64,000 bases of DNA. It comes from a virus. Shown here one piece after another: positions 6,450 to 63,722 of the stretch (the stretch's first letter is position 1; each line of letters opens with the position of its first letter). Location of the stretch: IMG/VR virus record IMGVR_UViG_3300024255_000001; one strand, 5' to 3'. The notes under the pieces are model-generated. The model saw nothing but the letters and a program-made list of their open reading frames with translations. It ran no database searches and was not told the origin of the DNA. The position numbers and the translations under genes were made by a program.

Positions 6450-6475
6450 TTATTTTAGATTAACAGTGTAACATA

Positions 6476-6484
6476 TTATATATC
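6476..6484 (-). promoter_or_regulatory. Putative late promoter GATATATAA upstream of the S1 gene
   Basis: Exact copy of a motif seen 10 times just upstream of minus-strand genes. Confidence 0.6.
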
Positions 6485-6852: not shown

Positions 6853-6892
6853 ATAATTTATATATTCTACAAAAAAACTTTGCCATTTTAGG

Positions 6893-6958
6893 CAAAATAA
6901 TTGCCTCTAGATTTTTTTATGTCAATTATTTTTCGTATATTAGTACTGTAATTAAAAA
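6893..6958 (+). promoter_or_regulatory. Putative early (host RNAP) promoter, copy 1 of 5
   Basis: TTTTTTTATGTCA-N11-TATATTAGTACTGTAATTAAAAA directly upstream of ATG 6971. Confidence 0.7.
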
Positions 6959-6970
6959 CAAACAATAACT

Positions 6971-9659: not shown

Positions 9660-9662
9660 AGC

Positions 9663-37052: not shown

Positions 37053-37253
37053 TTAAAGTTGTTGATCTTCTCTTGTTTTTAGCTGCTGTATGTATTTAGC
37101 TTTTTGCTTTTGCAGTCTTTTCTCTTGAGAAGGTTTTGTGAATTGTTTGCGATCTCTTAACGCGCGAAGTTGTTTTGTTCTAATTACTTTAGATTTAAGT
37201 TGTTTTAGAGCTTTTTCAATATTGGTTTTCTTATCTAGTTTTATTATTAACAT
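37053..37253 (-). CDS. rpsU: Ribosomal protein bS21 (Bacteroidota type)
   Basis: MLII...NIEKALKQLKSKV...LRDRKQFTKPSQEKRLQKQKAKYIQ. Confidence 0.85.
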   Translation of the reverse strand: MLIIKLDKKTNIEKALKQLKSKVIRTKQLRALRDRKQFTKPSQEKRLQKQKAKYIQQLKTREDQQL

Positions 37254-41789: not shown

Positions 41790-42029
41790 TTAAGTCATCC
41801 AACCGTTAGATTCTTCCCAGTCTTTATGGGAAGATAGCATTGAATACGCCTCAAAAGAAAGTGTTACTTCAACATAACCCCCTGTTATAGATTGGGGGCA
41901 TTTAGACTCACTTAGGTACCAGTTGGGTGCATCTTTAATCCTACCATTTAAAAAATCAAATAGTGGATCTATGTGCATGTGGTGTACCCATATATTGATA
42001 TGCATACATGTCATATTTGCTTTACCCAT
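41790..42029 (-). CDS. Hypothetical protein
   Basis: 79-aa ORF overlapping upstream stop. Confidence 0.55.
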   Translation of the reverse strand: MGKANMTCMHINIWVHHMHIDPLFDFLNGRIKDAPNWYLSESKCPQSITGGYVEVTLSFEAYSMLSSHKDWEESNGWMT

Positions 42030-42951
42030 TTTCTACGCTAAATCTTTTTTTGTCAAAGTTAATTGTACTTTTAATATCTTTCTTTTGGTACATATCTATC
42101 TGTTCGATTTCAGATGATTGTAATTTTTTACCATAATGCTCTTGATAGACTTTTTTATAGATAAGTGCCATAACACCATAGAGAGGAGCAAACTCTGAAG
42201 ACATTTCCACTACCCATGGTTTCCCATCTGTATCTACCATCAGGTCTATTGAGTATATGTCTAGACCTTCATGTGCCTCATTCATTTCTTGAAATACTTC
42301 ATTCCATTCGTTTGGCATTTTACTTAGATCTTTTAACACATACTTAAAGAATAGCTTGTCTTCTTTTTTCTTTGTCATCTCTTTGGTCTCCTTGTTACCA
42401 TGTACTCTTTGTACCCACATAACAGGCTCACCTCTCCACATCATTATTCTATGTTCTTCATCGATGTCTATCTTCTCGCTGAAAACTTCAAAATCTTTTA
42501 AATCCTCTTTCTTAGCATCTTCCAAAGTATCAAATTTTACAATACCCATTCCTGAGTATCTGTTATCTGGTTTTGCTATAATAGGGAATTTTAATTGATC
42601 TAGATCTTTAGCATCTGTTACAGTCTTAGGCACAAATTTACTATCTTTATGGGTAGCGTGCCATTTAACTTTAGATGCAATTTCCATTTTCTTTTCTTCA
42701 GGGTTATAGATTAAGTCTTTAGGAGTACCCGCATCTAATAATTTTTTAGTGTGGATATTACAAAAGTTAATCACTGGTAACTGAGACTTAAACGGCTCAT
42801 CACCCTTTGTAAACAGAGTCATAAAGTTTTTAGTATATGTGTCTTTATCTGTAACATACTTGAAATCTGTAATCTCAGTAGAAACACACATAATAACCTT
42901 ATGTAAATCTCCATCTCTTTCGTTAAGAAATGTTTGAAAATCTTTAATCAT
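42022..42951 (-). CDS. ATP-grasp (RimK-like) ligase with head-targeting-like leader
   Basis: FPIIAKPDNRYSGMGI, EKIDIDEEHRI, YSIDLM...PWVVEMSS; MIKDFQTFLNE leader; late promoter 42955-42963. Confidence 0.7.
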   Translation of the reverse strand: MIKDFQTFLNERDGDLHKVIMCVSTEITDFKYVTDKDTYTKNFMTLFTKGDEPFKSQLPVINFCNIHTKKLLDAGTPKDLIYNPEEKKMEIASKVKWHATHKDSKFVPKTVTDAKDLDQLKFPIIAKPDNRYSGMGIVKFDTLEDAKKEDLKDFEVFSEKIDIDEEHRIMMWRGEPVMWVQRVHGNKETKEMTKKKEDKLFFKYVLKDLSKMPNEWNEVFQEMNEAHEGLDIYSIDLMVDTDGKPWVVEMSSEFAPLYGVMALIYKKVYQEHYGKKLQSSEIEQIDMYQKKDIKSTINFDKKRFSVENG

Positions 42952-43017: not shown

Positions 43018-43446
43018 TTAAGATGGGAATACTTCAATCGTTCTTTCTTCTCTAACTAAATCTGCCCACTTGCCTTCGTATCTTGTACCTTTGACAATGT
43101 GGTTATCAACCCAGTGATAGTTACCACCTCTTGGTTTACCCATTAGTAGACCATGGTATTTGAAGCCATGTTTATTTAGCCAAGTTTCTGTAATCTCTCT
43201 TACTTCTTCAGTTCTTGAAGTAAAGAAAGTAATTACATGGCCTTCGTCAAACCATTTATTTAAAGTTTCTTTTGCACCTGCATAAGGTAAGACTATTGCC
43301 ATTCTCTCTGGCTCTTCATTTGGTACATCATCTGTAACCGTGCCGTCAATGTCAATTAGATAGTTCTTACACCCTGCGTTTAAAACAGGAGAGACTAGGT
43401 GTCCGTCATCTCCTACTGAGGAGTTTAAATTTAATTCTCTTTTCAT
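43018..43446 (-). CDS. HAD-superfamily phosphatase (capsule-biosynthesis phosphatase-like); start revised to MKRELN
   Basis: LIDIDGTV, FTSR, LLMGKP, WVDN. Confidence 0.75.
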   Translation of the reverse strand: MKRELNLNSSVGDDGHLVSPVLNAGCKNYLIDIDGTVTDDVPNEEPERMAIVLPYAGAKETLNKWFDEGHVITFFTSRTEEVREITETWLNKHGFKYHGLLMGKPRGGNYHWVDNHIVKGTRYEGKWADLVREERTIEVFPS

Positions 43447-43462
43447 ATTAATTATTTGTATA

Positions 43463-44890
43463 TTAAGGTTCTTCGTGGTTTCTAATAAATGATACAATAA
43501 TATATCTCTTACCACTTGTAATTGGCCTCGCGCCATGTCTATGTGTAATCATTCCAGGGTGGAGTACTGCTGTACCTATTCGATCTGGATTGGATAATTT
43601 TTGATACTGGGGGAACCAAGTTCCACCACCACTAAATTCATCATTTAATTTAATAACCATCGTTAGATGGCTTCTATCATGATGTAGAGATAGGTGTGAT
43701 TGTCTATTCGTTGTATACCTAGCCATGAAGTTTTCATTTGAGAATGCGTCCCACTGTTTACCTTCTAGGCTCCATTGGTGAATTGCAAGAGGTCTAACTA
43801 CTTCATGTAATACTTTATTGTAAATTTCATCTAAACCAATATCTTGTAATAAGACATCATTAGTTGGATAATGTTCGTGTCTGTCAATAGTCCACTTATC
43901 TTTAGCCTCTGCTAGAGCAATTGCTTCTCTACAGAATTTAGGAGTGAATAACGGGAATTCATATACGTTATCTCCTCTATCTGAAACCATTAAGTCATAC
44001 TCTCCCTTTGATACTGATAGATTAATATACTTCTCTTTCCATTCATCCCAATTAGACGTATCTAATATTTCAAAATATTCTGAGGCACTAGTATCAAATT
44101 CTGGTCTTACATATTCTGTTTGAGTTTGTTCAGGTTCCTGGTTAATTATTTCAGGTTGGTTTGGACTACCCACTTCTGGTTCTATTGTAGAACCTGCAAG
44201 TTTACCACCTCTATCCTGTACTATAAAATTTTGATCGCGTGTTGCTAATATAGTTAATGATTTTGGAAATAGTTCTTGAATATCATGCCTTCTATGTGGA
44301 TAACCTAATGCACTTAAATACTCATCTACAGGAATCACGTTTTCTTTTAATCCACCTGATAATAATAGTTTTGCTACATTAGGGTTTTTAATAATATATG
44401 CATGTGCATTATACCAATGTCTAGGATAAAGCCAAGTTTCATTAATAACCTCTTCTTCAACTTCTTTTTCAATTATATCTCTACCTAATAAGGCAACATC
44501 CCAATTAGTATCTACTGGAGGCTCTGCTAACATTGACATTGAATTACCTTCATTAAAGAAATCTTCTTCTAATATCAGTATTGGGCCTAGTCCATCGAAT
44601 ACTGCAGCTTCCCATACTTTTCTATGTGAAATTGCACACCCAACCTCTCCTGGTAAAACAGACCTTCTCCACCAATCATTCCAAGAATAAGGTGACTCAG
44701 GGCCCACATCCCATTTATCATAAACGGTATAACCCTCTTTTATATCACCTTCTCTACCATCAAATGCAGAAATAATTTCATACGGAGTATTTTCATAAAA
44801 ACCGCATGATTGTAACTTTTCTTCTATTGTTTGCTGAAGACTATCTCTATTTGTATCTAAAGCTATAACATAAATTTTATTAATTCTCAT
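43463..44890 (-). CDS. Fusion of GT25 (collagen galactosyltransferase-like) and PLOD-like lysyl hydroxylase domain
   Basis: N-terminal AFDG, GEVGCAISH..VW, ILEED, VIPVDEYL; C-terminal WKEKYI, VYEFPLF, YPTND, NFMARY, HHDRS, LHPGMITHRH, RYIIVSF. Confidence 0.85.
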   Translation of the reverse strand: MRINKIYVIALDTNRDSLQQTIEEKLQSCGFYENTPYEIISAFDGREGDIKEGYTVYDKWDVGPESPYSWNDWWRRSVLPGEVGCAISHRKVWEAAVFDGLGPILILEEDFFNEGNSMSMLAEPPVDTNWDVALLGRDIIEKEVEEEVINETWLYPRHWYNAHAYIIKNPNVAKLLLSGGLKENVIPVDEYLSALGYPHRRHDIQELFPKSLTILATRDQNFIVQDRGGKLAGSTIEPEVGSPNQPEIINQEPEQTQTEYVRPEFDTSASEYFEILDTSNWDEWKEKYINLSVSKGEYDLMVSDRGDNVYEFPLFTPKFCREAIALAEAKDKWTIDRHEHYPTNDVLLQDIGLDEIYNKVLHEVVRPLAIHQWSLEGKQWDAFSNENFMARYTTNRQSHLSLHHDRSHLTMVIKLNDEFSGGGTWFPQYQKLSNPDRIGTAVLHPGMITHRHGARPITSGKRYIIVSFIRNHEEP

Positions 44891-44911: not shown

Positions 44912-44938
44912 TTATACTAGAGTAACGCGAAAAGTTTC
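44912..44938 (-). promoter_or_regulatory. Putative middle promoter of the GT25-LH gene
   Basis: GAAAC-N16-GTATAA. Confidence 0.6.
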
Positions 44939-46485
44939 TCGCCCTCTAATAAGCTATTATTATTTTTTTTAATATAGTATTGATCTACCTCTGTTAAGAT
45001 ACCCATAATATTTTTATAGTCTTCAGAGGCTAACATTTCTTCTTTCGAATTAAAGTGTTTAATACCATCAAGATCAAAATATTTTAAATCACCATTTTCG
45101 TCTATCGCACAATTATATACATTTACTATATCAGTTAAAAGTATATTATGTTCTAGGGCTGCTTTAAAATGTTTTAAAATCTGTGGGTAAACTCCAATAT
45201 CTACTGGCCACTTCCAGTCTTCCCATTCCGGATATATGTTGTATTTTGAACAAAGAACTTGACTTGCTTCATATTTTTCTTGGACTACAAATAACACACC
45301 CTTATAGATACCGACATCATATAATTTAGGTATTATTCCTAATTCATATAATATTGAGTTTGTCTTTTTAATAACCAATGATAGTCTCATAGATGAAACG
45401 GGTGATGAAGCTCCAAAAGAAAATGGGTCTAGTGATGCTTTACATGGATATATAAATTTTAGTAGATAATCATCAAAGTAAAAAACTTTATGATAATATC
45501 TAAAATCACCATCATTACCCTTAAGTAAGGGTTCATCAAAAAGCCCACGGTATCTGTCTTGAATTAGTTTTTTAGTATCAATATTATCTACATTGATCTT
45601 TATATCACATTCATTTACCTCAGCAATTACCTTTCCTGTTTCAGCCCACCAGTCTTTATATTCTAGCTTAAATTTAGCTCTCTCAGGTTTGTGATATTTG
45701 TTTATTTGAACATCGTTTAAATAGCAATCAATACCTAACCCTACATCTTGCATGTATTTCTTTTGAATCTTATTACCAAGCTTAGCATCTATAGTATCAA
45801 CCCAAGTACCTACTTGTCCAATCCTAAAATCATGAGTTGTATATTTAATATCTGTATTAGCCCCGTTAGGTAGTCTTACATCAACAGGTTTACTAATAGT
45901 ATGTCCTAAGAATTTTGCTATCTTATTTACAGAAGAATCATACTCATTTATTATCTCTTCAAATGAAATGATTTCCATGTCAAGATCAAGAAGTTCTCTG
46001 CTCATATAAACAGAAAACCAGTTCTTGTAATAATCTATTAATAGATCTAAAAGGTTATCATGTTTTTTATCTGAAGACTTATATCCATTAAAATCAAAGT
46101 TTTCATAAAAGTCAGAGAAAGAAGTATACTTATTTTTAATATGAGGCCTATGGTAACATGAGGTCATTATATCTCTAACATCTCTATAGATTAAGATTAT
46201 TTTTGACTCAGAAAATATTTTTTGTAGTTTTTCTTCATCACCTAAATCAATGGAATGATTGTGTTTGTAAAAACTTCTATAGTTATGAGAATGTGTCCAT
46301 GTTACTTTATTACCTTCATTCATCCACCCATATAAACCGTTAAGTGCTGGCCATTCAAACTTAGTATAATCAAGATAATTTTTATCGATACTTTCATATC
46401 CAAAATTATTTACTATCAGATCTACTAATAAGTGAGTACCTCCTCTTCTTGCAGAAACTACTATAACATTCTTTTTAGAATCCAT
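44917..46485 (-). CDS. Sulfotransferase-like domain fused to a kinase-like domain
   Basis: SARRGGTHLL (5'-PSB), YRDVRDIMTS (3'-PB), SFEE, FRIGQVGTW; C-terminal PKLYD, VQEKY, TDIVNVYN, FDLDG. Confidence 0.65.
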   Translation of the reverse strand: MDSKKNVIVVSARRGGTHLLVDLIVNNFGYESIDKNYLDYTKFEWPALNGLYGWMNEGNKVTWTHSHNYRSFYKHNHSIDLGDEEKLQKIFSESKIILIYRDVRDIMTSCYHRPHIKNKYTSFSDFYENFDFNGYKSSDKKHDNLLDLLIDYYKNWFSVYMSRELLDLDMEIISFEEIINEYDSSVNKIAKFLGHTISKPVDVRLPNGANTDIKYTTHDFRIGQVGTWVDTIDAKLGNKIQKKYMQDVGLGIDCYLNDVQINKYHKPERAKFKLEYKDWWAETGKVIAEVNECDIKINVDNIDTKKLIQDRYRGLFDEPLLKGNDGDFRYYHKVFYFDDYLLKFIYPCKASLDPFSFGASSPVSSMRLSLVIKKTNSILYELGIIPKLYDVGIYKGVLFVVQEKYEASQVLCSKYNIYPEWEDWKWPVDIGVYPQILKHFKAALEHNILLTDIVNVYNCAIDENGDLKYFDLDGIKHFNSKEEMLASEDYKNIMGILTEVDQYYIKKNNNSLLEGEKLFALL

Positions 46486-48511
46486 CTATACCATCGGTTC
46501 TAGGGTTATCTTCTGTGATGCCGTTTCTTTCGAGCATCTTTTTATAGTCATCATTTATATTTCTGTCAAGAGTATTATATTGAGTATGCCAGTGGTATTT
46601 TAACCATTGGAACCCACCATAATCATATTTCCACGTATCATAAAATGGTTTATATTGTTCATAGTGTGCTCTTAAAACTTCTTCACTAAAGAATGTGTGG
46701 AAATTACCCACATTTTTATGAATAGACCATTTATATTTTCTAGAATCATCTATACCAAGGGGTTCTAACTCTAAAAACTCAGAAACTTCACCTAAAAATT
46801 TACCTTGGTTCCAAAGTACATCTTCATATCTTAATACAATACAGTTATCTCCAAATTGTTTTGTATATGATTCTATTAATTGTATTTGTTTATCTGCAAT
46901 TTCATTTATGAATTCTGCAGCTCTAATATCATCTGGATTATTTATGTAATCTTTTGAATACATGTGAAGCCCATTATCAAAATTTAAAATATTAATAGCA
47001 ACTTCTCTAGGGTCAGATATAACTAAAAATACTTTAGTTTTATTTACATCAATAAACTCATCAATAACTTTATCTTCCAATGGAACATGGCTCTTAGACC
47101 ATTTCGTTAAGTCAACTGTTTCTGGAAAGTTTTCTCTAATTAACTCTTTAGATAATTCTGAACCAACCATTCTCCAGCCTACTAAAAGATATTCATTATT
47201 TTCATTAGGTTTCCTAAGCCATGTATCAGGTCCATTTCGCCATACACCAGGTCTTTCTTCTTTCCAATCTCCCTGCAAACCCATTGAATTTGTTACAGGC
47301 CTCACATTCTGTTCTAATAACTTATGTTTTATTTTAAAATACTGCTCTGCATTATTTGTTATATGTGAATGCCACGCTTCTGCTGCTGCGTCCCACGTAA
47401 AATACCCTGCGGAATGTTCAGCATTACGTAATGCTTTATTTTTTAATTCTGTATCTATATCTAATAAAATATTAGCGGCAAGATCAAACATCGTATCATA
47501 ATCACTAAATGGCATAATTACCCCATCTTTAACAACTGATGGTAAAGCCGCTTTATCTGAAACAATACACAAGACTCCATTCATTTGCATTTCTAATGCA
47601 GTTATACAAAATGTTTCTTCATAATCAGAAAGATATAACCAATATGTAGCTTTTTGAGCAGCAGAATATAATTCTTGTTTAGAGACTGAGCCCATGTCGG
47701 TGACTCCCTCGTCCTTTAAATCATTTAATCTATCTACTACACCATCGATATTATACCAACTTTCCTGTCCAGTTTCATTTGGATCAGAATATTTTGGATA
47801 GTAAACATCTAAGGTTGCATTAGGCATTACCTTTTTAATTTTATACCAATTATCTAATAAAGCTACTAAACCTCTATCTACAGCAGATGCCCATATAAAT
47901 TTATTTGGATCTTTAACAGTAGGTGCATTGTAGAAATCTTCTTTATTAATTCCATTAGGAATGGACATAAGTCCACCTCGCCATGTTGAATTATCTAGTC
48001 TAGCTGCATTTGCAACTTGGCCAGTAATTAAATTAGGATATTTATTTTGAATTATATTTTCTATAATATGGTTAGATGCCCAATCTGATGGAGTTGTAAT
48101 ACATTGTATTTCGGTTAAATGTTTAAACTCTTCAAGACCTTCTATTGGTCTACCTTTATACCATGGTTCATATTCAGTGTTGTGCATCCAAATCCATTTA
48201 TATTTTGGATCTAGATCAGCATCTTCTAAGTAGTTTAAAAAGTTTATATAGTTTACACCTATTACTATATCAAAGTAATCACTAGGTCTATGTAAAAAAT
48301 TAAATTCAAATTCACCTAGGGCATGCCAAGTAACTCCATCAATCTTTTCACCATGTGAACTTTCAACCTCTCCGGCTACATGTACTTCATGGCCAAAATT
48401 TGATAATCGTTTACTTATCTCTATTACTGCTGTTTCTGTTCCGCCTAAACCGGTAGTTGTATTACCGTTAAATGTTTCAAATCGGTAACCTGTCCAAAAT
48501 AGTATTCTCAT
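46475..48511 (-). CDS. GT4 (GT-B) glycosyltransferase fused to a sulfotransferase-like domain; start revised to MRILFW
   Basis: GLGGTET, WMHN, IPNGI, SAVDRGL, EETFCITALE; C-terminal SKSH, SDPREV, LRYEDV. Confidence 0.7.
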   Translation of the reverse strand: MRILFWTGYRFETFNGNTTTGLGGTETAVIEISKRLSNFGHEVHVAGEVESSHGEKIDGVTWHALGEFEFNFLHRPSDYFDIVIGVNYINFLNYLEDADLDPKYKWIWMHNTEYEPWYKGRPIEGLEEFKHLTEIQCITTPSDWASNHIIENIIQNKYPNLITGQVANAARLDNSTWRGGLMSIPNGINKEDFYNAPTVKDPNKFIWASAVDRGLVALLDNWYKIKKVMPNATLDVYYPKYSDPNETGQESWYNIDGVVDRLNDLKDEGVTDMGSVSKQELYSAAQKATYWLYLSDYEETFCITALEMQMNGVLCIVSDKAALPSVVKDGVIMPFSDYDTMFDLAANILLDIDTELKNKALRNAEHSAGYFTWDAAAEAWHSHITNNAEQYFKIKHKLLEQNVRPVTNSMGLQGDWKEERPGVWRNGPDTWLRKPNENNEYLLVGWRMVGSELSKELIRENFPETVDLTKWSKSHVPLEDKVIDEFIDVNKTKVFLVISDPREVAINILNFDNGLHMYSKDYINNPDDIRAAEFINEIADKQIQLIESYTKQFGDNCIVLRYEDVLWNQGKFLGEVSEFLELEPLGIDDSRKYKWSIHKNVGNFHTFFSEEVLRAHYEQYKPFYDTWKYDYGGFQWLKYHWHTQYNTLDRNINDDYKKMLERNGITEDNPRTDGIDGF

Positions 48512-48512
48512 A

Positions 48513-49136
48513 TTATTTGTAATGTGAGCCACCAACCCATAAAACTAAAGATCTTCTAGTACCCTTGGTGACAGGAGATACTCTATGCATCATATAACTT
48601 GGAAAAAGAACTGCGACTCCTCTACCTCTCGGGCAGGTTGTTGCTCCCCAATCATTTGAAGTATCACCACCGGAAGTAATTTGTAATTCACCACCTTCAT
48701 ATTCGTCTGAATCTGATAATTGAATTGTAATAGAAACTTTTCTTCTAGAGGGTAATTCACCAGGACCTATATCTTGGTGCCAGTCGTAGTGCCCATTTTC
48801 ATGAGCATAATATTCTGTGTATTGAATTTGTTCTGGAGCAGAGTGTAGATCGAATTGCCATAGATTATTATTTGCTTCTTCAGCAAAACCAATTAATCTT
48901 TTATACAGCCAATCCCAATCTCTATTCTGTGGAACCCATTTTACCATTGAGGAACGAACTCCTTCAGGATCGTTACCCTCAATAGCTTCGCCATCTGAGC
49001 CTATTGTAGTTGCTCGTTCTACTGGAAGTTCACTAGCTAATTTAATAATTTTACTAACCTCTTCCTTAGTTAAACCTTCTTTAAACCAATACCATTGTTG
49101 TGGATCGTTTGTTGGTTGATTAAAACTGTAAGTCAT
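48513..49136 (-). CDS. 2OG-Fe(II) oxygenase (prolyl 4-hydroxylase/PKHD-type)
   Basis: QYTEY, YDWHQD, RKVSITIQLS, YEGGEL, FPSYMMHRVSPVTKGTRRSLVLW. Confidence 0.85.
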   Translation of the reverse strand: MTYSFNQPTNDPQQWYWFKEGLTKEEVSKIIKLASELPVERATTIGSDGEAIEGNDPEGVRSSMVKWVPQNRDWDWLYKRLIGFAEEANNNLWQFDLHSAPEQIQYTEYYAHENGHYDWHQDIGPGELPSRRKVSITIQLSDSDEYEGGELQITSGGDTSNDWGATTCPRGRGVAVLFPSYMMHRVSPVTKGTRRSLVLWVGGSHYK

Positions 49137-49200: not shown

Positions 49201-50121
49201 TTAAACATCAGTTAAAGTAGCTGTAGCAGTTAATACAGGTACGCCCTTATTATTACTATCAATATTATTTAATGTCATGATAATAGTTTCATCTTCCTCC
49301 TTCTCATTATCTAAGACGTAGTTCAATGTAACTTGAGCTTGTCCGTTTGTAAATACAAATTTACCAAAAGCCCAACCCATCGTTGATGGTTCATAATCAG
49401 CTAAACCTACGTAACCCTCTACTTCAGCTTGAGCGCGGACCTCTAAAATATCTTGCCAAGAGTTAGCAACTAACCCTGCGCTTTCATCTGCCGTTACATC
49501 CCATATATTAGCAGTACCAAGAAGGTAGAACGAAACTATAGTTCCATCAGGTACGTTATCTGCAGTTAGAGTCCATGTTGAGCTAGTACCTTCAGGTGAT
49601 ATTGCAGGAGTAACTGACAACTGATAATTAGTTGGAAGTACCTCTGATACTGTAGTAGTAGCCACCGGTGTTGGATAAGTCTCTGCTGGCATGCCTAATT
49701 GTGCTTTAACAGCTTCTGCTCTAGCATTTAATTCATTAAGTGCATCTAAACATAAAACTGAAAGAGCTTCATAGTCTATCCAATAATAATCCTCATCTTC
49801 ATCTAGCCAGTCCATAACCCTTACAAGACTTGGTTCTACTGCAGCTAATTCTTGTGCAATCAAACCAATTCTTTTAGGTTGTACTCCACCAAATTCTTCA
49901 GGTCTATCCCATCCAAATTGCTGACCTAATTCGTTCATATAGAAATAATAGGTTTCTAAAGTTCTAATTTTTTCAGTAGCAGAACCAACTGGTAAATTAA
50001 TCTCTTTAGATAAAAGGTATTGTGCCGCTGGTTTAATATCAACCGCGTACGCCCATCCACCAGAACCGTCGTTCTTTAAACTAAATCCAGGATCGTAATT
50101 CCAATTCTCTATACCTGCCAT
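49201..50121 (-). CDS. Stand-alone degenerate S74-type intramolecular chaperone domain plus Calx-beta/Ig-like domain
   Basis: IGLIAQELAAVEPSLV...IDYEALSVLCLDALNEL without SDxRLK; DNEKEEDETIIMTL. Confidence 0.65.
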   Translation of the reverse strand: MAGIENWNYDPGFSLKNDGSGGWAYAVDIKPAAQYLLSKEINLPVGSATEKIRTLETYYFYMNELGQQFGWDRPEEFGGVQPKRIGLIAQELAAVEPSLVRVMDWLDEDEDYYWIDYEALSVLCLDALNELNARAEAVKAQLGMPAETYPTPVATTTVSEVLPTNYQLSVTPAISPEGTSSTWTLTADNVPDGTIVSFYLLGTANIWDVTADESAGLVANSWQDILEVRAQAEVEGYVGLADYEPSTMGWAFGKFVFTNGQAQVTLNYVLDNEKEEDETIIMTLNNIDSNNKGVPVLTATATLTDV

Positions 50122-50150: not shown

Positions 50151-52157
50151 TTATCTATAGCCCATGTAACACATGCCGTAATCAGGACCGTCAACACTAG
50201 CACAACCCGAAACATATTGAATTGAACATGCACAAATGTATGTACTGGAGTAGCTATATCCAGATGTGGTTTGCCTATTTCCTGCACAGTCTGTATAGTA
50301 AACAGTACTATAACATCCGGATCTGTTTATCATGTAATCGTAACATTGACATACAGATCCAGCAGGGCCTTGAGTACCTGAAGCACCAGTATCACCTTTT
50401 GGACCTTTAGGTCCAGTTGAACCAACTCCACCTGATGCTCCTGTCGGTCCTTGTGAGCCTGCAGCACCTTTTGGACCAGTACCACCTTGTGCACCAGTTG
50501 CACCTTTTGGTCCGGTAGGGCCAGTTGGACCTTGTGGACCTGCAGCACCAGTATCACCTGTAGCACCTTTTGGTCCAGTAGCGCCAGGAAGTCCACCGGG
50601 ACCTTGTGCACCTTGATTACCAATTGCACCTTGTGGACCAGTAGGGCCTTGAGCACCAGTTGCGCCTTTAGCACCTTGGCCACCTTGTGGACCTTGATTA
50701 CCGCCGCCACCAGAAGGGCCTGCTACACCTGTTGCTCCAGTAGCGCCTTGGTTTCCAATAGCACCTGTATCTCCACCTGGGCTTGGACCAACATAACCTT
50801 TAGCACCTTGGCCACCAATTGGACTATTACCTATTATACCTTTTTGACCAATATCTCCACCAGCACCTTTAGAACCTTGATCTCCGGTTGCACCTACGCC
50901 TCCTGTATCTCCACCACCGCCTGTAGCACCTTGAGCTCCACCATCACCATTAGCACCGGTTAAACCTGTAAGACCGGTTTTGCCTTGATCTCCGCCGCCA
51001 CCTACAGCACCTTGACCACCTAAATCACCACCAGCACCTTTAGAACCCTGGTCACCAATAATACCCTGGTCACCACCGCCACCTACAGCACCTTGATCAC
51101 CACCGCCACCAACTGGACTATTACCAACGCCACCTTTGGGGCCTTGATCTCCGGTTGCACCAGTTGCACCAATAGCACCTTGAGCACCTGTATCACCACC
51201 GGTACCAGAAGGACCTGATGGACCTGTTGCTCCAATTGGAGCAGTTCCCTGTGGACCTATTATACCTTTTTGACCAATATCTCCACCAGCACCTTTAGAA
51301 CCAGTATTACCAGTATCACCTATAGCACCAGTTGCACCGACAGCACCTTGAGCACCAATTGGACTATCACCAACAACACCAATTGCCCCAGTATTACCTA
51401 TATCTCCGCCGCCACCAACAGCACCAACATTACCTAAATCACCACCGCCGCCGATAGCACCTGTTCCGCCTTGATCTCCACCAGGGCTAGTACCTTGAGC
51501 TCCGCCGCCACCTTGAGTACCGATTGCACCTTGATCACCTTGGCCACCAAGAGCACCTTTTGGACCTTGATCTCCGCCGCCACCTTGAGTACCGATTGCA
51601 CCAAGATCACCTCCACCGCCGATAGCACCTGTTCCGCCTTGATCACCAGTACCACCTGGAGAACCGATTGCACCAGTATCACCTGTTATGCCTTTTGGAG
51701 AATCACCACCAGCACCTTTAGCACCAGTATCACCAGTTGCACCTTGTGGGCCTTGATCACCAACAACACCTGCAATACCGTCACCACCGCCAGCACCTTT
51801 AGCACCAGTATCTCCGCCACCGCCGACATCACCAGTTGGACCAGTAGTACCTATATCACCTTTTGAAACAGGAGCAGTATGGTTATCACCAGCACCACCT
51901 AAATCACCTGGAGCACCTTGGTCACCACCATCACCGCCTCCACCAAAAGCACCTTTATTACCTTTGTTTCCTGGAGCACCTTGTGGACCTTTGACGCCTT
52001 GGTCACCACCGCCACCACCAGCACCTTTAGCACCTTTTGCACCTGTAACACCTTTTTCACCTGGCTCTCCTAATAAATAAGGAAAGTTTTTAGGTTCAAA
52101 ATTAGAATCAGTCAGTACTTGGTTACCTGCGACAAGTATGTTTCTGTAATCAGCCAT
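50151..52157 (-). CDS. Collagen-like fibre B (Asp/Gly-rich, interrupted) with Cys-rich C-terminal domain
   Basis: About 570 aa of Gly-X-Y; 8 Cys in the last 67 aa. Confidence 0.9.
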
Positions 52158-52175: not shown

Positions 52176-54302
52176 TTAAGAACCTAATTGACTCTCAATA
52201 TCTGTTAATTTCGTATCTAATTCCTTAATAGCCTCAATTAAAATAGCAGATAGTTTAGAGTAATCAACTCCTCTATAACCTTCTTCTGGATCTAATCCTG
52301 GAATTTGGAATACTAATTCTGGGAATTGAGCTTGTACCTCTTCGGCAAGCACACCCATTCTAGGAGCAGTACCCATTCCTAATGATTGTGCGAATTCATT
52401 TGGATTCCAAATTACACCTCTAATTGCATTAATTTTAGTTAAGGTATTTCCAATTGGACCTTCAACATTCTTTAATCTAGAATCTGAAGTTCCTGGAGGG
52501 CCTTGTGGACCTTGTGCACCTTTTTGACCTTTTTGACCTGTTGGACCGGTTGGACCTTTAGCACCAGTACCACCAGTACCACCAGTATTACCTTTTAAAC
52601 CTGCTGGACCTGTTGGACCAGTATTACCTTTCGGGCCTGTTGGACCTGTACCACCGCCACCACCTTGTGGACCTTGTGCACCAGTATTACCTTTTACACC
52701 TTGTGGACCAGTTGGACCTTTCGGGCCAGTTGGACCCATTGGACCAGTATTACCTTTCGGGCCTGTTACACCTGTTGCACCAGTTGCGCCTTTAGTACCT
52801 TGTGGACCAGTAGGGCCTTGACTACCTGTAGGACCTTTAAGACCTGTTGGACCTGAAGGACCAGTAGGACCTTGTGGGCCAGTATTACCTTTTGGACCAG
52901 TTGCTCCTTTGACTCCAGTTGCTCCTTGGACACCTCGAGGTCCCGTTGGACCTTGTGGACCAGTAGGACCTTGAAGACCAGTACCACCCTGTGGACCTTT
53001 CAGGCCTTGTGGACCTGTTGGACCTTTAGTACCTTGTGGACCAGTTGGACCCTTTGGACCTCCAGGACCAGTTGCACCTTTTTGACCTTTTTGACCTTGA
53101 GGACCTGTTCCACCACCTGCACCAGTTGCACCTTTAATACCTTGTGGACCTGTACCACCCTGAGGACCTTTAAGACCTTGTGGGCCAGTATTACCTTTTG
53201 GACCTTGTGGACCTTTAAGACCTTGTGGACCAGTTGGACCTTTCAGGCCTTGTGGACCAGTATCACCTTTCGGGCCTGTTGGACCGGTTGGACCTTTTGG
53301 ACCTTGTGGACCTTGACCACCTTGATTACCCTTAGGACCTTTAAGACCTTGTGGACCTGAAGGACCGGTTGGACCTTGTGGACCAGCAATACCCTGTGGA
53401 CCTTGTAGGCCTTGACCACCCTGAGGACCTTTAGCTCCTTGTGGACCAGTACCACCTTGTGGGCCTTTAGCTCCTTGTGGACCAGTTGGACCAGTTATAC
53501 CTTTAAGACCTTGTGGACCTTTAGCTCCTTGTGGACCAGTATTACCTTTTGGCCCTTTTGGACCTTGTGGACCTTGACCACCTTGAGGACCTTTAGCTCC
53601 TTGTGGACCAGTTGGACCAGTTTGACCTTTAACTCCTTGAGGACCCTGTGGACCTTTTAATCCACTAGGACCTTGTGGACCTTGTGGGCCTTTAGCTCCT
53701 TGAAGACCTTGTGAACCTGTTGAACCTTTTAATCCACTAGGACCTTGTGAACCTTGTGGACCTTTTGCACCCTGACCCCCTTGAGGACCTTGTGGGCCTT
53801 TAACTCCTTGAGGACCTTGTGGGCCTTTAGCTCCTTGAAGACCTTGTGGACCGGTTGGACCTTTCGGGCCTTGTGCACCAGTTGCACCTTTAATACCTTG
53901 TGCACCAGTTTGACCTTTAGTTCCAGGACCACCCTGCGGTCCCTTTTCACCTTGTGCACCTCCTGGGCCTTTAGCTCCTTGTGGGCCTTTAACACCAATT
54001 TCACCTTTTTGGCCTTTTGAACCAGCTAAACCTGGGGCACCCTTTGCACCGCCAACACCTTTAGCTCCTTGTCCACCTTTTTGACCTTTTTCACCTGCAT
54101 CACCGCCACCACCTTGTGGACCTTTGGGACCTTGACCTCCAACTTCACCTTTTTGACCCTTTGCTCCACCAGGACCTTGTTGTCCAGTGTCGCCTGTTGG
54201 ACCTTTAGCTCCTTTCATGGCACTATATTGTGTAGGGTCGAAGTTTCCAGCTGTTAGAATAATAGATCCTTGTACTGTAGCTCCTGCTTTTAAATTTGCC
54301 AT
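52176..54302 (-). CDS. Collagen-like fibre A (Lys/Pro/Gln/Thr-rich) with C-terminal S74 autocleaving chaperone
   Basis: About 575 aa of Gly-X-Y; SDSRLK...GVLAEEV...FPELV...VDYSKL...EAIKEL. Confidence 0.9.
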
Positions 54303-56518: not shown

Positions 56519-59380
56519 TTAAAATTCGAATCTTATTGTACTACCATCTGATGTTATTTCACCCCCGCTATTAAAGACGTATTTTGTAGTTACAATATGT
56601 CCGGTTGAAACAGTAAGAATACTTGTTGAATCATTAAATGTCATATTACTTTCTCCAGTAAACGGTGTGCCTGAATTACCTGTCATAGTAACAACTCGGT
56701 TATTCACGTTACCTCCTGAAATAGAAGTACTTGCTGGAGTACCTGATGTACCTGATGAACCAGAAGTTCCAGATGAACCAGAAGTTCCAGATGAACCAGA
56801 TGTTCCAGATGAACCTGAGCTACCTGAAGAACCAGATGAACCGCTTGTTCCAGAAGAACCAGATGAACCGCTTGTTCCAGATGAACCAGATGAACCTGAC
56901 GTTCCAGATGAACCAGATGAACCACTTGTTCCAGATGAACCACTTGAACCAGATGAACCTGAAGTTCCAGAAGAACCAGATGAACCTGAAGTTCCAGAAG
57001 AACCTGAGCTACCTGAAGTACCGTTTAAATCATGTACTGGATTCCAGTTACTACCATCCCATTGTAAAACTTGTCCATTAGCAGTATAACCTAATTGTCC
57101 AACAAATTCACCATTACCTAGGTCTTCAACATCAGTTCCTGATTTAGCACCTGTATAACCAGATGAACCAGAAGAACCAGATGAACCAGAAGAACCAGAT
57201 GAACCTGAAGTTCCAGATGAACCGCTTGTTCCAGATGAACCAGATGAACCGCTTGTTCCAGAAGAACCACTTGAACCAGATGAACCTGAAGTTCCAGAAG
57301 AACCAGATGAACCTGAAGTTCCAGAAGAACCAGATGAACCTGAAGTTCCAGAAGAACCAGATGAACCTGAAGTTCCAGAAGAACCACTTGAACCAGATGA
57401 ACCTGAAGTTCCAGAAGAACCAGATGAACCGCTTGTTCCAGAAGAACCAGATGAACCGCTTGTTCCAGAAGAACCAGATGAGCCGCTTGTTCCAGAAGCA
57501 CCAGTATCACCTTTATCACCAGTTGCAACTAATGAAATTACAATATCATCTCCGTTTGTAAATGGAGCTGGGCTTGATGAACCTACATTTGATAAATCAG
57601 TTAATGTCCACCATGCACCATTATCTGTTAAATTACCGATTGCAAATAATAAGTATTCGTCGGTATTGAATTTTTTAGATATTCTAATGTGTGCCTTAAT
57701 ACCAGATGTTACTGCATCTAAAGCTGTAAAGAATGACTCCACACTACCATTATCATCGTCAGTTTGTGATATGTAAATATTACCTGCACTTGTTTGTGTT
57801 GTAAAGTTATCTAATCTTAGTCTACCATCAGCAGGTTGAGATGCGCCTACAGCAGATGCAAATGTATAATCAAATGATGCACCACCAAAGTTACCGTCTT
57901 GTCCTGATGTACCTGAAGAACCAGATGTACCTGAAGAACCTGAAGAACCGCTTGTTCCAGATGAACCAGATGAGCCGCTTGTTCCAGATGAACCTGATGA
58001 ACCACTTGTTCCAGATGAACCTGAAGTTCCAGATGAACCTGAAGAACCGCTTGTTCCAGATGAACCTGAAGTTCCAGATGAACCCGAAGAACCGCTTGTT
58101 CCAGATGAACCTGAAGAACCTGAAGTTCCAGAAGAACCACTTGTTCCAGATGAACCTGAAGAACCGCTTGTTCCAGATGAACCTGAAGAACCTGAAGTTC
58201 CAGAAGAACCACTTGAACCAGAAGTACCATTTAAGTCACCTACTGGATTCCATGTTACTCCATCCCATTCATATATGATACCATCTGCCGTATAACCTAA
58301 TTGGCCGACAAACTCACCACTACCTAATCCTTCAATATTTTCTGCTGATTTAGCACCTGAGTAACCAGATGAACCTGAAGAACCTGAAGTTCCAGAAGAA
58401 CCACTTGAACCAGATGAACCTGAAGTTCCAGAAGAACCAGATGAACCGCTTGTTCCAGAAGAACCAGATGAACCGCTTGTTCCAGAAGAACCGCTTGAAC
58501 CTGAAGAACCTGAAGTTCCAGAAGAACCTGAAGAACCACTTGTTCCAGATGAACCTGAAGAACCGCTTGTTCCAGATGAACCTGAAGAACCTGAAGTTCC
58601 TGAAGAACCGCTTGAACCACTTGAACCTGAAGTTCCTGAAGAACCACTTGAACCAGATGATCCGTTTAAATCGTTTAATGTAACCCATGTTGCTCCATCC
58701 CATTGGTGTACCAGACCGTCAGCAGTATAACCTAATTGACCTACAAACTCACCATCACCTAATCCTGCAACTTCTGTTGCTGATTTAGCACCTGAGTAAC
58801 CAGATGAACCTGAGCTACCAGATGAGCCTGCTGAACCTGAAGTTCCTGAAGAGCCTGAAGTTCCTGAAGAGCCAGAAGTTCCTGAGCTACCTGAAGAGCC
58901 AGAAGTTCCTGAGCTACCTGAAGAGCCAGAAGTACCATCAATACCCGATGAACCGCTTGAGCCTGAAGTCCCATCAATACCTGATGAACCACTTGAGCCT
59001 GAAGTCCCATCAATACCTGATGAACCACTTGAGCCTGAAGTCCCATCAATACCTGATGAACCACTTGAACCTGAAGTCCCATCAATACCTGATGAACCGC
59101 TTGAACCTGATGTTCCACTTGAACCTGATGTTCCTGAAGAGCCTGATGAACCAGAAGTTCCTGAGCTACCTGAAGAGCCAGAAGTACCATCAATACCTGA
59201 TGAACCACTTGAGCCTGAGGTTCCTGATGAACCACTTGAGCCTGAAGTACCAGATGAACCATCTAATGGTGCAGCTTGGTTTTCCCATTTGCCCGTAACG
59301 TTGTTGTATGCTAAATAATCACCGTTTTGAGGATTATTTAACAAAAATTCTTGTATTTGTTTTAATCTTAGTCTAGACAT
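56519..59380 (-). CDS. (Gly-Ser-Ser/Gly-Thr-Ser)n fibre with three repeated knob domains
   Basis: Long GSSGTS runs; GEFVGQLGYTA(D/N)G...WDG..W knob x3; late promoter 59411-59419. Confidence 0.85.
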   Translation of the reverse strand: MSRLRLKQIQEFLLNNPQNGDYLAYNNVTGKWENQAAPLDGSSGTSGSSGSSGTSGSSGSSGIDGTSGSSGSSGTSGSSGSSGTSGSSGTSGSSGSSGIDGTSGSSGSSGIDGTSGSSGSSGIDGTSGSSGSSGIDGTSGSSGSSGIDGTSGSSGSSGTSGSSGSSGTSGSSGTSGSSGTSGSAGSSGSSGSSGYSGAKSATEVAGLGDGEFVGQLGYTADGLVHQWDGATWVTLNDLNGSSGSSGSSGTSGSSGSSGSSGTSGSSGSSGTSGSSGSSGTSGSSGSSGTSGSSGSSGSSGTSGSSGSSGTSGSSGSSGTSGSSGSSGSSGTSGSSGSSGYSGAKSAENIEGLGSGEFVGQLGYTADGIIYEWDGVTWNPVGDLNGTSGSSGSSGTSGSSGSSGTSGSSGSSGTSGSSGTSGSSGSSGTSGSSGSSGTSGSSGTSGSSGSSGTSGSSGTSGSSGSSGTSGSSGSSGTSGSSGSSGTSGSSGTSGQDGNFGGASFDYTFASAVGASQPADGRLRLDNFTTQTSAGNIYISQTDDDNGSVESFFTALDAVTSGIKAHIRISKKFNTDEYLLFAIGNLTDNGAWWTLTDLSNVGSSSPAPFTNGDDIVISLVATGDKGDTGASGTSGSSGSSGTSGSSGSSGTSGSSGSSGTSGSSGSSGSSGTSGSSGSSGTSGSSGSSGTSGSSGSSGTSGSSGSSGSSGTSGSSGSSGTSGSSGTSGSSGSSGSSGSSGSSGYTGAKSGTDVEDLGNGEFVGQLGYTANGQVLQWDGSNWNPVHDLNGTSGSSGSSGTSGSSGSSGTSGSSGSSGSSGTSGSSGSSGTSGSSGSSGTSGSSGSSGTSGSSGSSGSSGSSGTSGSSGTSGSSGTSGSSGTSGTPASTSISGGNVNNRVVTMTGNSGTPFTGESNMTFNDSTSILTVSTGHIVTTKYVFNSGGEITSDGSTIRFEF

Positions 59381-60257: not shown

Positions 60258-60947
60258 TTATAGTTCTTTTATATGTTTTACATATCCATCCTCATCATCC
60301 TGTGATAATGAAACAACCATATAACCTAATTTTTTATATACTAGGTCAATAACATACATATTTTTTAATAATGCAAAGCTTCTTCTAATAGGTTCTATTT
60401 CCCAATCAGACTTTCTTCTTAAGCCAGGATTCCAACTAAAACCCATATAATTATCTACTAATTGATTTTCTTTAATTTTAAAACTAACTGGAAGAACTCT
60501 TCTAACAGTTACGCCCCCTGGTAAAGTAAACTTTCTTTTTTCAATTGGATTGGATATTTTATCTGATTTTGGTCTAATCCAAACCTGTAGAACTTTAGGT
60601 TGGCTTTCTAATACCTTTAGCGAATCCTCAATAAATCCACCTTTATAGAATTCCCAATCATGTTCACAGTGGAATATGTAATCGGTTTGTACATTTGCAT
60701 ACATTTTATCAATGGAAGCGGTTAGACCTATATTATTACTATTAAAAATAAGTTTAAATCGCTTATTCCATTTATTGTTATTTAAACTAACAATTTTATT
60801 CCATACAGTAGTATCACCTGAGTCTTCTATAATAAACCATTCTTTGATCGGGTAATCATTAAACTTAAGAAAACTATCTATAGTTTTTTCTAATTCATCT
60901 ATCTTACCGTAGCTAGTTAAACAAAATGTTACTTCTTTATGTTCCAT
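60258..60947 (-). CDS. GT2/GT-A-like glycosyltransferase
   Basis: CLTSYG, IIEDSG, NIGLTASID, FHCEHDWEF, FSWNPGLRR. Confidence 0.75.
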   Translation of the reverse strand: MEHKEVTFCLTSYGKIDELEKTIDSFLKFNDYPIKEWFIIEDSGDTTVWNKIVSLNNNKWNKRFKLIFNSNNIGLTASIDKMYANVQTDYIFHCEHDWEFYKGGFIEDSLKVLESQPKVLQVWIRPKSDKISNPIEKRKFTLPGGVTVRRVLPVSFKIKENQLVDNYMGFSWNPGLRRKSDWEIEPIRRSFALLKNMYVIDLVYKKLGYMVVSLSQDDEDGYVKHIKEL

Positions 60948-62170
60948 TACTTATATAAATTAGTTTTCCAATCATAATCGTATGTTAAACCGGACTCTCT
61001 TTTACCGGACATAAGATCTTTAATTAATTTTTTGTAAGTATCAACTAAGCCTTCATTAAATACTGTGTATCTCTCTAAGACATCTTCTGATCTATCATTA
61101 TATTCCTCTAGATTATCATCATGTGTTTCAATAATCTTTTTTAATTGTTCAGCGCCTTTATGTATTTCAAATTCCGGGTAATAGTAACCAGCATCTTGAA
61201 TCATATCAGCATTGTGAATTAAAGGGTATCTTAAATATAATGTATCTAAATAAGCATAGTTAAGTGGGTTGTGCCATTGATGTGATACAACAATATCTGC
61301 TAATTTAGAAAGTGTAGATATGACTGGTAATCTACCATGTGTTTTAATATTTGTATCTCCAGGGACTGCTAAATCTAAAGTAGTTATGATACTTTTCCAA
61401 TATGAATTAGTTATTAAAGATGTACTACTCATTAAATTTAATTGGCCCACTTTATTACCCTCTCGTTTCCATAATTCGACAATTAAAATCGGTAATATAT
61501 TAAACTTAACTACATTTAAGTTGGGTTCCATGACACAAAATTTTAAAGTGTCTTTAGGTTTTCCAGGAATATAAACAGGAAAGCCAATGTTTGGATTTTC
61601 AGCCATGGCTTTATCCCATTTATCTAATTCTTCATCTAAGAAACATGGATCCCAAATAAATGGAACTGGAATAACTTTTTCTAAAGGTAAATTATATAAG
61701 GCAGCATAATAGCCTTTATTTTGGTGACCTTGTTGAGGTACATACCAACATTCGTCTATGCAATCTCTTTGGTAAGCAGCCTCGCCCATTTCCCTAGGAT
61801 TTTTCTTTGGGAAGATAGACCTTTCCATATCTATTACATAGTTATTACCACAATGATATTTAATTACCCTTCTTTTAGGTTTAAACTTTTTCCAAGCTTT
61901 AATTAATTTTACATTAAAAGAAGTACCCAACATAATTAACATATCTATATGTTGAGATGCGTCCGAGTATTTTTCTGTAGGGAATTCTTTTAAATCCCAC
62001 CTTACATTTTCTTGAGTTATATCTTTAACAGAACTACCAGTATCTAATATAGTAACTTTATGACCGGTTTTTTGTAGAGCTTTACTTAAGAAGAGTGCAT
62101 TTAATTTAATACCATTTATCCAAAGACTTTCCTTCTCTGATTGCAGGCTTATAGTAATTCCAATATGCAT
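60947..62170 (-). CDS. DUF2827-like GT-B glycosyltransferase
   Basis: IGITI...LWINGIKLN, CGNNY, EPNLNVVK, VSHQWHNPLNY, YPLIHN, GYYYP. Confidence 0.7.
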   Translation of the reverse strand: MHIGITISLQSEKESLWINGIKLNALFLSKALQKTGHKVTILDTGSSVKDITQENVRWDLKEFPTEKYSDASQHIDMLIMLGTSFNVKLIKAWKKFKPKRRVIKYHCGNNYVIDMERSIFPKKNPREMGEAAYQRDCIDECWYVPQQGHQNKGYYAALYNLPLEKVIPVPFIWDPCFLDEELDKWDKAMAENPNIGFPVYIPGKPKDTLKFCVMEPNLNVVKFNILPILIVELWKREGNKVGQLNLMSSTSLITNSYWKSIITTLDLAVPGDTNIKTHGRLPVISTLSKLADIVVSHQWHNPLNYAYLDTLYLRYPLIHNADMIQDAGYYYPEFEIHKGAEQLKKIIETHDDNLEEYNDRSEDVLERYTVFNEGLVDTYKKLIKDLMSGKRESGLTYDYDWKTNLYK

Positions 62171-62267: not shown

Positions 62268-63722
62268 TTATCCTCTGATACCAATCACTGTTACGTGGTC
62301 AGTAACGTCAATGTCATATCCAATAGATACTAAATTAAACGTTGCACCGTCTGCAGTTGTGTAACCATCAGTTCCACCTTCGGACGAACTATCCTTGTGG
62401 ATGTTATGTCCGTTAATGAATACTAATAAGTCATCGTTAGAACCGAATTTAACCGGAGTGTTTAACGTAAACTGAGTAGGACCAGCTACTGTTGCACCTT
62501 GCTCAAATACTAAGTCATATAATTCTAATGAATCGATAGAAGCATTAATAGCATTAACTTCATTACCAGTAGCGGTAATTTCATCACCTAATGCAGTTTC
62601 TAATGAATCGATAGAAGCGATAGCTGCATCTTCAGCCGTTTCTAATGAATCGATAGAAGCATTTACTTCAGTTGCAACTGCTGCTGCACCTGCTAAAGTT
62701 TCTAATGAATCGATAGAAGCGATAGCACTGTCTTCAAACGTTTCTAATGAATCGATAGAAGCATCTACTACAGTTTTAACCGCTGCTGCGCCTGCTAAAG
62801 TTTCTAATGAATCGATAGAAGCGATAGCTGCATCTTCAAACGTTTCTAATGAATCAATAGAAGCATCTACTACAGTTTTAACCGCTGCTGCACCTGCTAA
62901 AGTTTCTAATGAATCGATAGAAGCGATAGCTGCATCTTCAGCTATTTCTAATGAATCGATAGAAGCACCAGAACCACCAGTTAATCCAGATACTACAATC
63001 TCTAATGAATCGATAGAAGCACCAGTAGCTGAAGTTAAGTCAGAAACTAAACCATCATTTAATGTGTCAACTGATTCAACGAATGATACGATTTCAGCAA
63101 ATGTATCTAGATCTAATGAAGAACCAGATAACATATTAGAAATCGCTGTTTCGTTAGCACCTGCTAAAGTTTCTAATGAATCGATAGAAGCGATAGCTGC
63201 ATCTTCAGCCGTTTCTAATGAATCGATAGAAGCGTTTACTACCGTCGCAACTGCTGCTGCACCCGCTAAAGTTTCTAATGAATCGATAGAAGCATCTACT
63301 ACAGTTTTAACCGCTGCTGCGCCTGCTAAAGTTTCTAATGAATCGATAGAAGCGATAGCTGCATCTTCAAACGTTTCTAATGAATCAATAGAAGCATTTA
63401 CTTCAGTTGCAACTGCTGCTGCACCTGCTAAAGTTTCTAATGAATCGATAGAAGCATCTACTACAGTTTTAACCGCTGCCGCACCTGCTAAAGTTTCTAA
63501 TGAATCGATAGAAGCATTTACTTCAGTTGCAACTGCTGCTGCACCTGCTAAAGTTTCTAATGAATCGATAGAAGCGATAGCTGCATCTTCAGCTATTTCT
63601 AATGAATCAACAGAAGCTTCGACTGCATCAATTAGAGCTGCATTCTGATCTGTATCATTATCAATTAATGATTGAACTGCGCTTGTAAAGTCACTAATTT
63701 GTTTTGTCTTTAATCTTGCCAT
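62268..63722 (-). CDS. Coiled-coil fibre protein with 19 (S)IDSLE repeats
   Basis: 14- and 20-aa repeat units; LDTFAEI knob; C-terminal LVFING...GYDID domain. Confidence 0.85.
   Translation of the reverse strand: MARLKTKQISDFTSAVQSLIDNDTDQNAALIDAVEASVDSLEIAEDAAIASIDSLETLAGAAAVATEVNASIDSLETLAGAAAVKTVVDASIDSLETLAGAAAVATEVNASIDSLETFEDAAIASIDSLETLAGAAAVKTVVDASIDSLETLAGAAAVATVVNASIDSLETAEDAAIASIDSLETLAGANETAISNMLSGSSLDLDTFAEIVSFVESVDTLNDGLVSDLTSATGASIDSLEIVVSGLTGGSGASIDSLEIAEDAAIASIDSLETLAGAAAVKTVVDASIDSLETFEDAAIASIDSLETLAGAAAVKTVVDASIDSLETFEDSAIASIDSLETLAGAAAVATEVNASIDSLETAEDAAIASIDSLETALGDEITATGNEVNAINASIDSLELYDLVFEQGATVAGPTQFTLNTPVKFGSNDDLLVFINGHNIHKDSSSEGGTDGYTTADGATFNLVSIGYDIDVTDHVTVIGIRG

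Follow-up and report, generated by a model that had tools for sequence, protein, structure and literature searches.

One gene of a marine bacteriophage joins a GT25 glycosyltransferase domain to a PLOD-type lysyl hydroxylase domain. It lies in the window, the whole 64,000-nucleotide stretch of viral DNA analysed here, downstream of two genes for collagen-like fibres. The product is best explained as a minimal enzyme with two activities, hydroxylation and glycosylation, both directed at lysines in the phage's own fibres, a reading with a probability of roughly 0.65. The model is built on the domains, catalytic residues, gene linkage and substrate composition observed, and takes its chemistry and order of steps from mimivirus L230 and human COLGALT1. 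Hydroxylation of the fibre lysines by the fusion is highly probable on this analysis; glycosylation of the fibre hydroxylysine by the GT25 half is favoured with less assurance. Consecutive hydroxylation and glycosylation of lysine, as put forward in the original prediction, thus appears to have been right as a proposal.

The phage and the fusion gene

The window has a GC content of about 35% and nearly all of its genes are on one strand. Among its products are baseplate proteins, an S1-domain protein (5169-6449), the ribosomal protein bS21, PhoH, DnaJ and Hsp20. The bS21 and baseplate genes mark it as part of a tailed jumbo phage; a relative of the window sits on a 263-kb contig, and the sequencing runs that contain its DNA come from seawater. 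The window therefore belongs to a marine tailed jumbo phage. Lake phages with bS21 were predicted to infect Bacteroidota (PMC9723584) and a contig related to the window was binned with a Flavobacteriaceae genome, from which a Bacteroidota host may be inferred. The bS21 gene lies here between DnaJ and PhoH; in the lake phages it lies in the terminase and capsid block.

Table 1 Positions of the fusion gene, its parts and other features in the window
Feature	Position	Strand	Remarks
Baseplate genes	746-10379		
Ribosomal protein bS21	37053..37253	-	
HAD/LNS2-type phosphatase	43018..43536	-	Directly downstream of fusion
GT25 and lysyl hydroxylase fusion gene	43463..44890	-	475 aa
PLOD-type Fe(II)/2OG lysyl hydroxylase domain	43466..44083	-	aa 270-475
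Disordered P/E/Q-rich linker	44084..44206	-	aa 229-269; length and sequence vary
GT25 domain	44207..44890	-	aa 1-228; Pfam PF01755 1e-11, profile against PDB 5e-25, Foldseek 1e-12
D189-E190	44321..44326	-	COLGALT1 D522 (catalytic base) and E523 (hydroxylysine-amine anchor)
E108-E109-D110 metal/nucleotide motif	44561..44569	-	COLGALT1 E435-D436-D437
Sulfotransferase	44917..46485	-	C-terminal domain without Pfam match; seen in few related loci
GT4 glycosyltransferase fused to sulfotransferase-like domain	46475..48535	-	Candidate second sugar transferase
Second 2OG-Fe(II) oxygenase	48513..49136	-	P4H/PKHD-like, not PLOD-like
S74-type tail fibre chaperone protein	49201..50121	-	
Collagen-like fibre B	50151..52157	-	668 aa; second inferred substrate
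Collagen-like fibre A	52176..54302	-	708 aa; C-terminal S74 chaperone domain; main inferred substrate

The fusion ends a conserved run of genes made up of collagen fibres, chaperone, 2OG oxygenase, GT4 and the fusion itself (Table 1). The second oxygenase would usually be taken for a prolyl 4-hydroxylase, but the fibres have few prolines at Y, and the PDB entries that it matches best are PKHD-type hydroxylases. The true start of the HAD phosphatase is probably later than the one listed, because the protein has 142 aa in relatives. An ATP-grasp (R2K-like) peptide ligase (42022-42951), two genes downstream of the fusion, is kept in most related loci. On the other side of the fibres, a 953-aa protein (56519-59380) with about 200 Gly-Ser-Ser/Gly-Thr-Ser triplets is a candidate Ser/Thr-glycosylated fibre; upstream of it are a GT2 gene (60258-60947) and a DUF2827 gene (60947-62170). 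An acidic protein of 484 aa, rich in ASIDSLE repeats, is encoded at 62268-63722; its sole family match is a PHROG of unknown function.

The fusion is not an assembly chimera, since the best 120 homologues, out of 517 proteins that match with an E value of at most 1e-10, cover 99-100% of the query, and the gene also lies within a contig (43028-50237) assembled from an unrelated sequencing run. An RNA-library contig (X16, 43084-44904) also covers it; contigs cannot show transcription. All motifs quoted for the gene in the original prediction are present in the open reading frame. Landmarks of the GT25 half are GEVGC (residues 81-85), EED (108-110), GR (136-137) and DE (189-190); those of the hydroxylase half are YPT (341), Y392, H403-x-D405, H452 and R462.

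A Pfam scan of the 475 residues placed GT25 at 4-120 and found no match to the GT_PLOD domain PF25342. Its matches in the second half of the protein, of OGFOD2-like and 2OG type, were weak, the OGFOD2-like one falling below cut-off. The AlphaFold model consists of two confident domains, with pLDDT below 50 across most of the linker (228-269). Mean identity among homologues is 76% in the hydroxylase half, 46% in the GT half and 24% in the linker, which is not conserved. A 43-sequence profile scored 126 bits against L230, 106 against LH3, 73 against COLGALT1, 26 against a bacterial GT25 and 19 against a Bacillus prolyl 4-hydroxylase (P4H). When the predicted structure was searched with Foldseek, LH3, L230 and COLGALT1 all ranked above every prolyl hydroxylase and bacterial GT25.

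The hydroxylase domain

By its sequence, the C-terminal domain is a PLOD-type lysyl hydroxylase that has kept its iron triad and 2OG residues. Residues 280-469 match the hydroxylase domain of L230 at E 2e-28 and human LH3 at E 6e-24, which bears out the PLOD-like assignment first made from the motifs. Residues Y392, H403, D405, H452 and R462 align with L230 Y814, H825, D827, H877 and R887, each of which stops activity when mutated; the earlier claim of an intact iron triad and 2OG-binding arginine therefore holds. None of the 120 best homologues deviates at the triad, Y392 or R462. The Foldseek TM score of the domain is 0.83-0.85 to the L230 domain and about 0.6 to prolyl hydroxylases. Grouping with generic 2OG oxygenases, the contrary outcome envisaged by the original prediction, was not seen, either in the profile scores for L230 and LH3 against P4H or in the tree.

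L230 forms a tail-to-tail dimer through a leucine, L873, set in an aromatic pocket; compared by sequence only, this pocket appears partly kept in the fusion. L873 corresponds to I448 (Ile or Val in the family); in the aromatic pocket, Y798 corresponds to the invariant W373 and Y831 to the non-aromatic L409, and the equivalent of Y801 is ambiguous at an alignment gap. Complex prediction for a homodimer of the hydroxylase domain scored 0.29 against a mark of 0.42, which speaks neither for nor against a dimer.

The GT25 domain

The COLGALT-like nature of the N-terminal half, also part of the original prediction, was confirmed. In a search against solved structures, residues 73-199 match COLGALT1 at E 2e-7, and the family profile of this half finds the second domain of COLGALT1, its catalytic GT2 lobe, with 91 bits (E 5e-25). 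Bacterial GT25 (E 1e-7) and mimivirus R655 reach 34-36 bits, and over the first 120 residues only. The profile comparison shows a GT2-like lobe alone; the GT1 lobe of COLGALT is absent from the fusion.

Several catalytic positions are conserved, with C85 equivalent to COLGALT1 C412, Y160 to Y494 and E108-x-D110 to E435-x-D437. The metal motif is EDD in most homologues and EED in the copy described here. Together, C85, the ExD motif, Y160, D189 and E190 are retained in about 100 of the 120 best homologues as well as in this copy. E190 was considered as a mark of hydroxylysine-specific GT25 enzymes and rejected, as GT25 proteins of Aureibacter and Thiotrichaceae carry it too. In the acceptor cleft, W495 of COLGALT1 is replaced by N161 and K470 by D138. 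The W495A mutant of COLGALT1 has no activity, so the asparagine is a real caution for transferase activity. Two L230-type proteins likewise lack this tryptophan.

The GT25 step is dispensable in some lineages, since the GT motif test is failed by 18 of the 120 best homologues, all of which retain the hydroxylase, and one locus (L025) has the hydroxylase and no GT25. Members of one fusion subclade (L007:10001-11290 and L390:10001-11293) have a degenerate GT25 domain, with the metal motif and GExGC gone, together with an intact hydroxylase, a GT4 and very lysine-rich collagens.

These facts bear on an unlikely but credible alternative, in which the hydroxylase acts on the fibre lysines, the GT25 half serves as a scaffold or substrate-binding module or has another acceptor, and GT4 adds the first sugar. 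The other acceptor could be a sugar or the Ser/Thr residues of the Gly-Ser-Ser repeat protein encoded in this window. Loss of the W495 and K470 equivalents would fit such a role, as would the subclade with a dead GT domain, which keeps GT4 and lysine-rich collagen (149 lysines at Y in L390), and the existence of GT4-hydroxylase fusions without GT25. Against it stand the five retained catalytic positions, the absence of the same tryptophan from some L230-type proteins, and the constant tie between GT25 and hydroxylase, by fusion or by translational coupling, across all phage groups that were compared. The bifunctional enzyme is preferred. Its sugar donor is not fixed by homology because the homologous L230 domain uses glucose; galactose, named in the original prediction, is unsupported.

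Collagen-like fibres as candidate substrates

The likely substrate was not mentioned in the original prediction. In fibre A, Gly-X-Y repeats 192 times without a break, and all 56 lysines of the repeat are at Y; fibre B has 180 triplets in eight runs with 21 lysines at Y. The two fibres thus offer 77 Y-position lysines, 5-11 kb upstream of the fusion. Prolines of the window fibres number 111 at X and 8 at Y. Hydroxylated X-Lys-Gly is the motif recognised by COLGALT1, whose cleft takes only an unfolded chain. The preference of lysine for Y over X does not discriminate, for phage collagens of hydroxylase-free records share it.

Salt bridges that stabilise collagens arise at Lys-Gly-Asp/Glu, and lysines meant for modification might therefore be expected to be freer of Asp/Glu. 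In the window, 5% of the Y-lysines precede Gly-Asp/Glu; the median over 26 hydroxylase-linked loci is 16%. It is 60% in nine near-complete hydroxylase-free records (p 0.004 against the hydroxylase-linked loci), and these nine were chosen by a Lys-Gly-Pro pattern, which biases the share downward. When records were chosen by a lysine-neutral pattern, 9 of 15 without hydroxylase had no Y-lysine at all, and Lys-Gly-Asp/Glu made up 43 of 53 Y-lysines in hydroxylase-free records against 16 of 53 in two positive ones. The enzyme was present in 7 of 46 records selected by Lys-Gly-Pro collagen and in 0 of 49 selected by Lys-Gly-Asp; the latter set is circular for composition and serves for enzyme presence only.

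Exceptions to the low share are found in loci L011 (78%) and L022 (65%) and in the L006 record (18 of 19), and L012/L013 have almost no lysine-bearing collagen in a record that is 45% complete. The p-values on composition are overstated, as kinship, genome size and habitat confound the comparisons and some records are fragmentary. The trend supports, and does not prove, that the fibres are substrates of the enzyme.

Recurrence in other phages and bacteria

Among 28 fusion loci with upstream DNA, many of them close kin, Gly-X-Y genes were found in 22, at least 9 Y-lysines in 15 and a GT4 gene upstream in 25. The association is not confined to fusions of this layout. The cultured Roseobacter phage CRP-6 (45 kb) encodes a GT25, PLOD-GT and hydroxylase protein (gp58), and the fibre gp60, two genes ahead, has 99 triplets with 26 Y-lysines (L057:8287-11899). 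The cyanophages S-CAM9 and S-8S55 have the same three-domain protein; the assignment is from domain scans in these two and CRP-6, and from hydroxylase match, length and position in S-PRM1. In S-CAM9 (gp27-gp31, L405:9399-18258) and S-PRM1 (L406:3666-12507) the fibre lies four genes upstream, with 22-23 Y-lysines in 59 triplets. This protein, unannotated in CRP-6, S-CAM9 and S-PRM1, may combine all three steps of the animal pathway within about 600 aa. In phages of about 67 kb, GT25 and hydroxylase are overlapping separate genes, and long collagens with many Y-lysines are encoded elsewhere. Four or more phage groups with no relation to each other thus show the linkage to lysine-bearing collagen.

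Distant relatives of the hydroxylase occur as GT4-GT25-LH, GT4-LH, PLOD-GT-LH and GT25-PLOD-GT-accessory-LH fusions and as stand-alone proteins. The original statement that exactly these two steps are fused is consequently unsupported, the hydroxylase being joined also to GT4 or the PLOD GT, or to nothing. The GT4-GT25-LH triple fusion suggests that the neighbouring GT4 works in the same pathway, where it may add a second sugar.

In Thiotrichaceae (L042-L050; Thiothrix fructosivorans, L046:9827-10594), a stand-alone PLOD-like hydroxylase shows about 50% identity to the phage domain. No collagen gene adjoins it at those loci. Three of five Thiotrichaceae have long collagen-like proteins elsewhere, with lysine at X or in Lys-Gly-Asp. 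Two further proteins (P0235 and P0264) have the L230-type order of GT25 and hydroxylase behind hydrophobic, signal-peptide-like N-termini and are possibly fusions from cellular eukaryotes.

Recurrence also bears on a quite improbable reading, in which the target is another virion or host protein, a host surface glycan or a small molecule, and the fusion belongs to a generic island of late glycosyltransferase and oxygenase genes beside the fibres. Variable clusters of such genes in jumbo phages have been ascribed to changes of surface polysaccharides (PMC7824862), Pfam classes the hydroxylase domain as no more than OGFOD2-like, and that below cut-off, and the bacterial stand-alone relatives have no adjacent collagen. 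Such an island would leave unaccounted for the linkage in unrelated phages, the way in which collagen composition tracks the presence of the enzyme, and the distance of the domain from generic oxygenases in the tree.

Evolutionary origin

The hydroxylase tree unites animal, choanoflagellate and L230-type sequences in a single clade (99/87), with phage and Thiotrichaceae sequences outside it and P4H-like oxygenases far off on a long supported branch. In the GT25 tree, support is 99/94 for a group of COLGALT and L230-type sequences and 99/97 for a phage group, which stands apart from the named Megavirus, Moumouvirus and Tupanvirus orthologues. The root of both trees is uncertain and fixes no donor, and the placement of CRP-6 and the outgroups suffers from long branches. 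Given their position outside the animal and L230-type clades in both trees, the two domains represent, at the level of these phylogenies, a separate phage radiation. Recent capture of the fusion from an animal is rejected, as neither half nests in animal clades.

The separate lineage leaves room for drift in specificity, so that the domain might hydroxylate the fibres at another residue or position, such as X-position proline (111 in these fibres) or C3/C4 of lysine; this is very improbable, because LH3 and L230 are much closer than all prolyl hydroxylases in both fold and sequence, lysine is the residue that shows the composition signal, and the fibre repeat of CRP-6 has 6 prolines against 26 lysines.

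Proposed function and significance

In the favoured model of a bifunctional lysine-modifying enzyme, a cytoplasmic phage protein would mature the phage's own collagen-like fibres. With Fe(II), 2-oxoglutarate and O2, the C-terminal domain would act on chains that are still unfolded and hydroxylate the lysines of their Gly-X-Lys-Gly repeats. The GT25 domain tethered to it would then move a hexose from a UDP-sugar to the new hydroxyl by an inverting, Mn-dependent mechanism like that of COLGALT1. The neighbouring GT4 and, in this phage, sulfotransferases may extend the sugar, and the modified chains would trimerise with help from the S74 chaperone. On the virion, the modification may stabilise the helix, shield it from proteases or recognition, or serve in host binding. 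A wider scheme is doubtful: it combines an extended, sulfated hydroxylysine-linked glycan on the fibres, made by hydroxylase, GT25, GT4 and sulfotransferases for host binding or shielding, with a phage and bacterial radiation that was the source pool of L230 and of animal PLOD and COLGALT.

Hydroxylation and glycosylation of collagen lysines have so far been described for animals and giant viruses. Literature searches, in which subscription papers were thinly covered, found no paper on this modification in bacteriophages. If the model is correct, the modification is common on bacteriophage fibres too and represents a new kind of phage protein modification. The cultured phages CRP-6, S-CAM9 and S-PRM1 are practical systems for testing it. 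The phage family also widens the question of the origin of PLOD and COLGALT, and a 475-aa enzyme suited to the bacterial cytoplasm could help to produce modified recombinant collagen. The surprise is tempered by L230, which already has both activities in one viral chain.

Comparison with known enzymes

The closest known counterpart is L230 of Acanthamoeba polyphaga mimivirus (PDB 6AX6; PMC9614988, PMC9546862, PMC5802723), also a single viral chain with an N-terminal GT25 and a C-terminal PLOD-type hydroxylase. Its N-terminal domain (1-194) is a GLT25D1-like transferase, and both its hydroxylase and its glycosyltransferase activities have been assayed, with glucose as the sugar and glucosyl-hydroxylysine as the product (PMC9614988). 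It hydroxylates collagen on co-expression in E. coli. The original prediction had set the fusion apart from L230 as an enzyme of PLOD-type GT and hydroxylase layout; the contrast was mistaken, since L230 starts with the GLT25D1-like domain and its orthologues in Megavirus and Moumouvirus begin with GT25. The two proteins share the iron and 2OG residues, the presence of collagen-like proteins with Y-lysines in the same genome, and the lack of a signal peptide. Unlike the 895-aa L230, the fusion is without the middle of about 500 residues that holds the PLOD GT and accessory domains. Moreover, it comes from a tailed bacteriophage rather than a giant virus, both of its halves fall outside the L230-type clade, and its acceptor motif is WYN instead of SYW.

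Human LH3/PLOD3 (PDB 6FXK) and PLOD1/2 have a homologous hydroxylase domain of about 200 aa with the same triad and 2OG ligands. They differ in their three-domain layout, as the fusion has no PLOD GT or accessory domain; in addition, its loop before the PT motif is shorter, the dimer leucine is isoleucine, and it would act in the cytoplasm rather than the ER. With the GT2 lobe of human COLGALT1/GLT25D1 (PDB 9EVJ, 9U7H; PMC12003778, PMC12987934), the fusion shares the GT25 fold, GExGC, the ExD metal motif and the Y494, D522 and E523 equivalents; it differs in having no GT1 lobe, Asn for W495, Asp for K470 and Glu in the middle of EDD. Bacterial GT25 (a beta-1,4-galactosyltransferase, PDB 8XLZ) and mimivirus R655 are of the same family and share the N-terminal nucleotide-binding motifs. 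Being without the extra domains of L230, PLOD and COLGALT and outside their clades, the fusion is a strict orthologue of none of them. The joining of GT25 and lysyl hydroxylase is thus of an already known and assayed kind, that of L230; new are its occurrence in a bacteriophage and its reduction to two domains.
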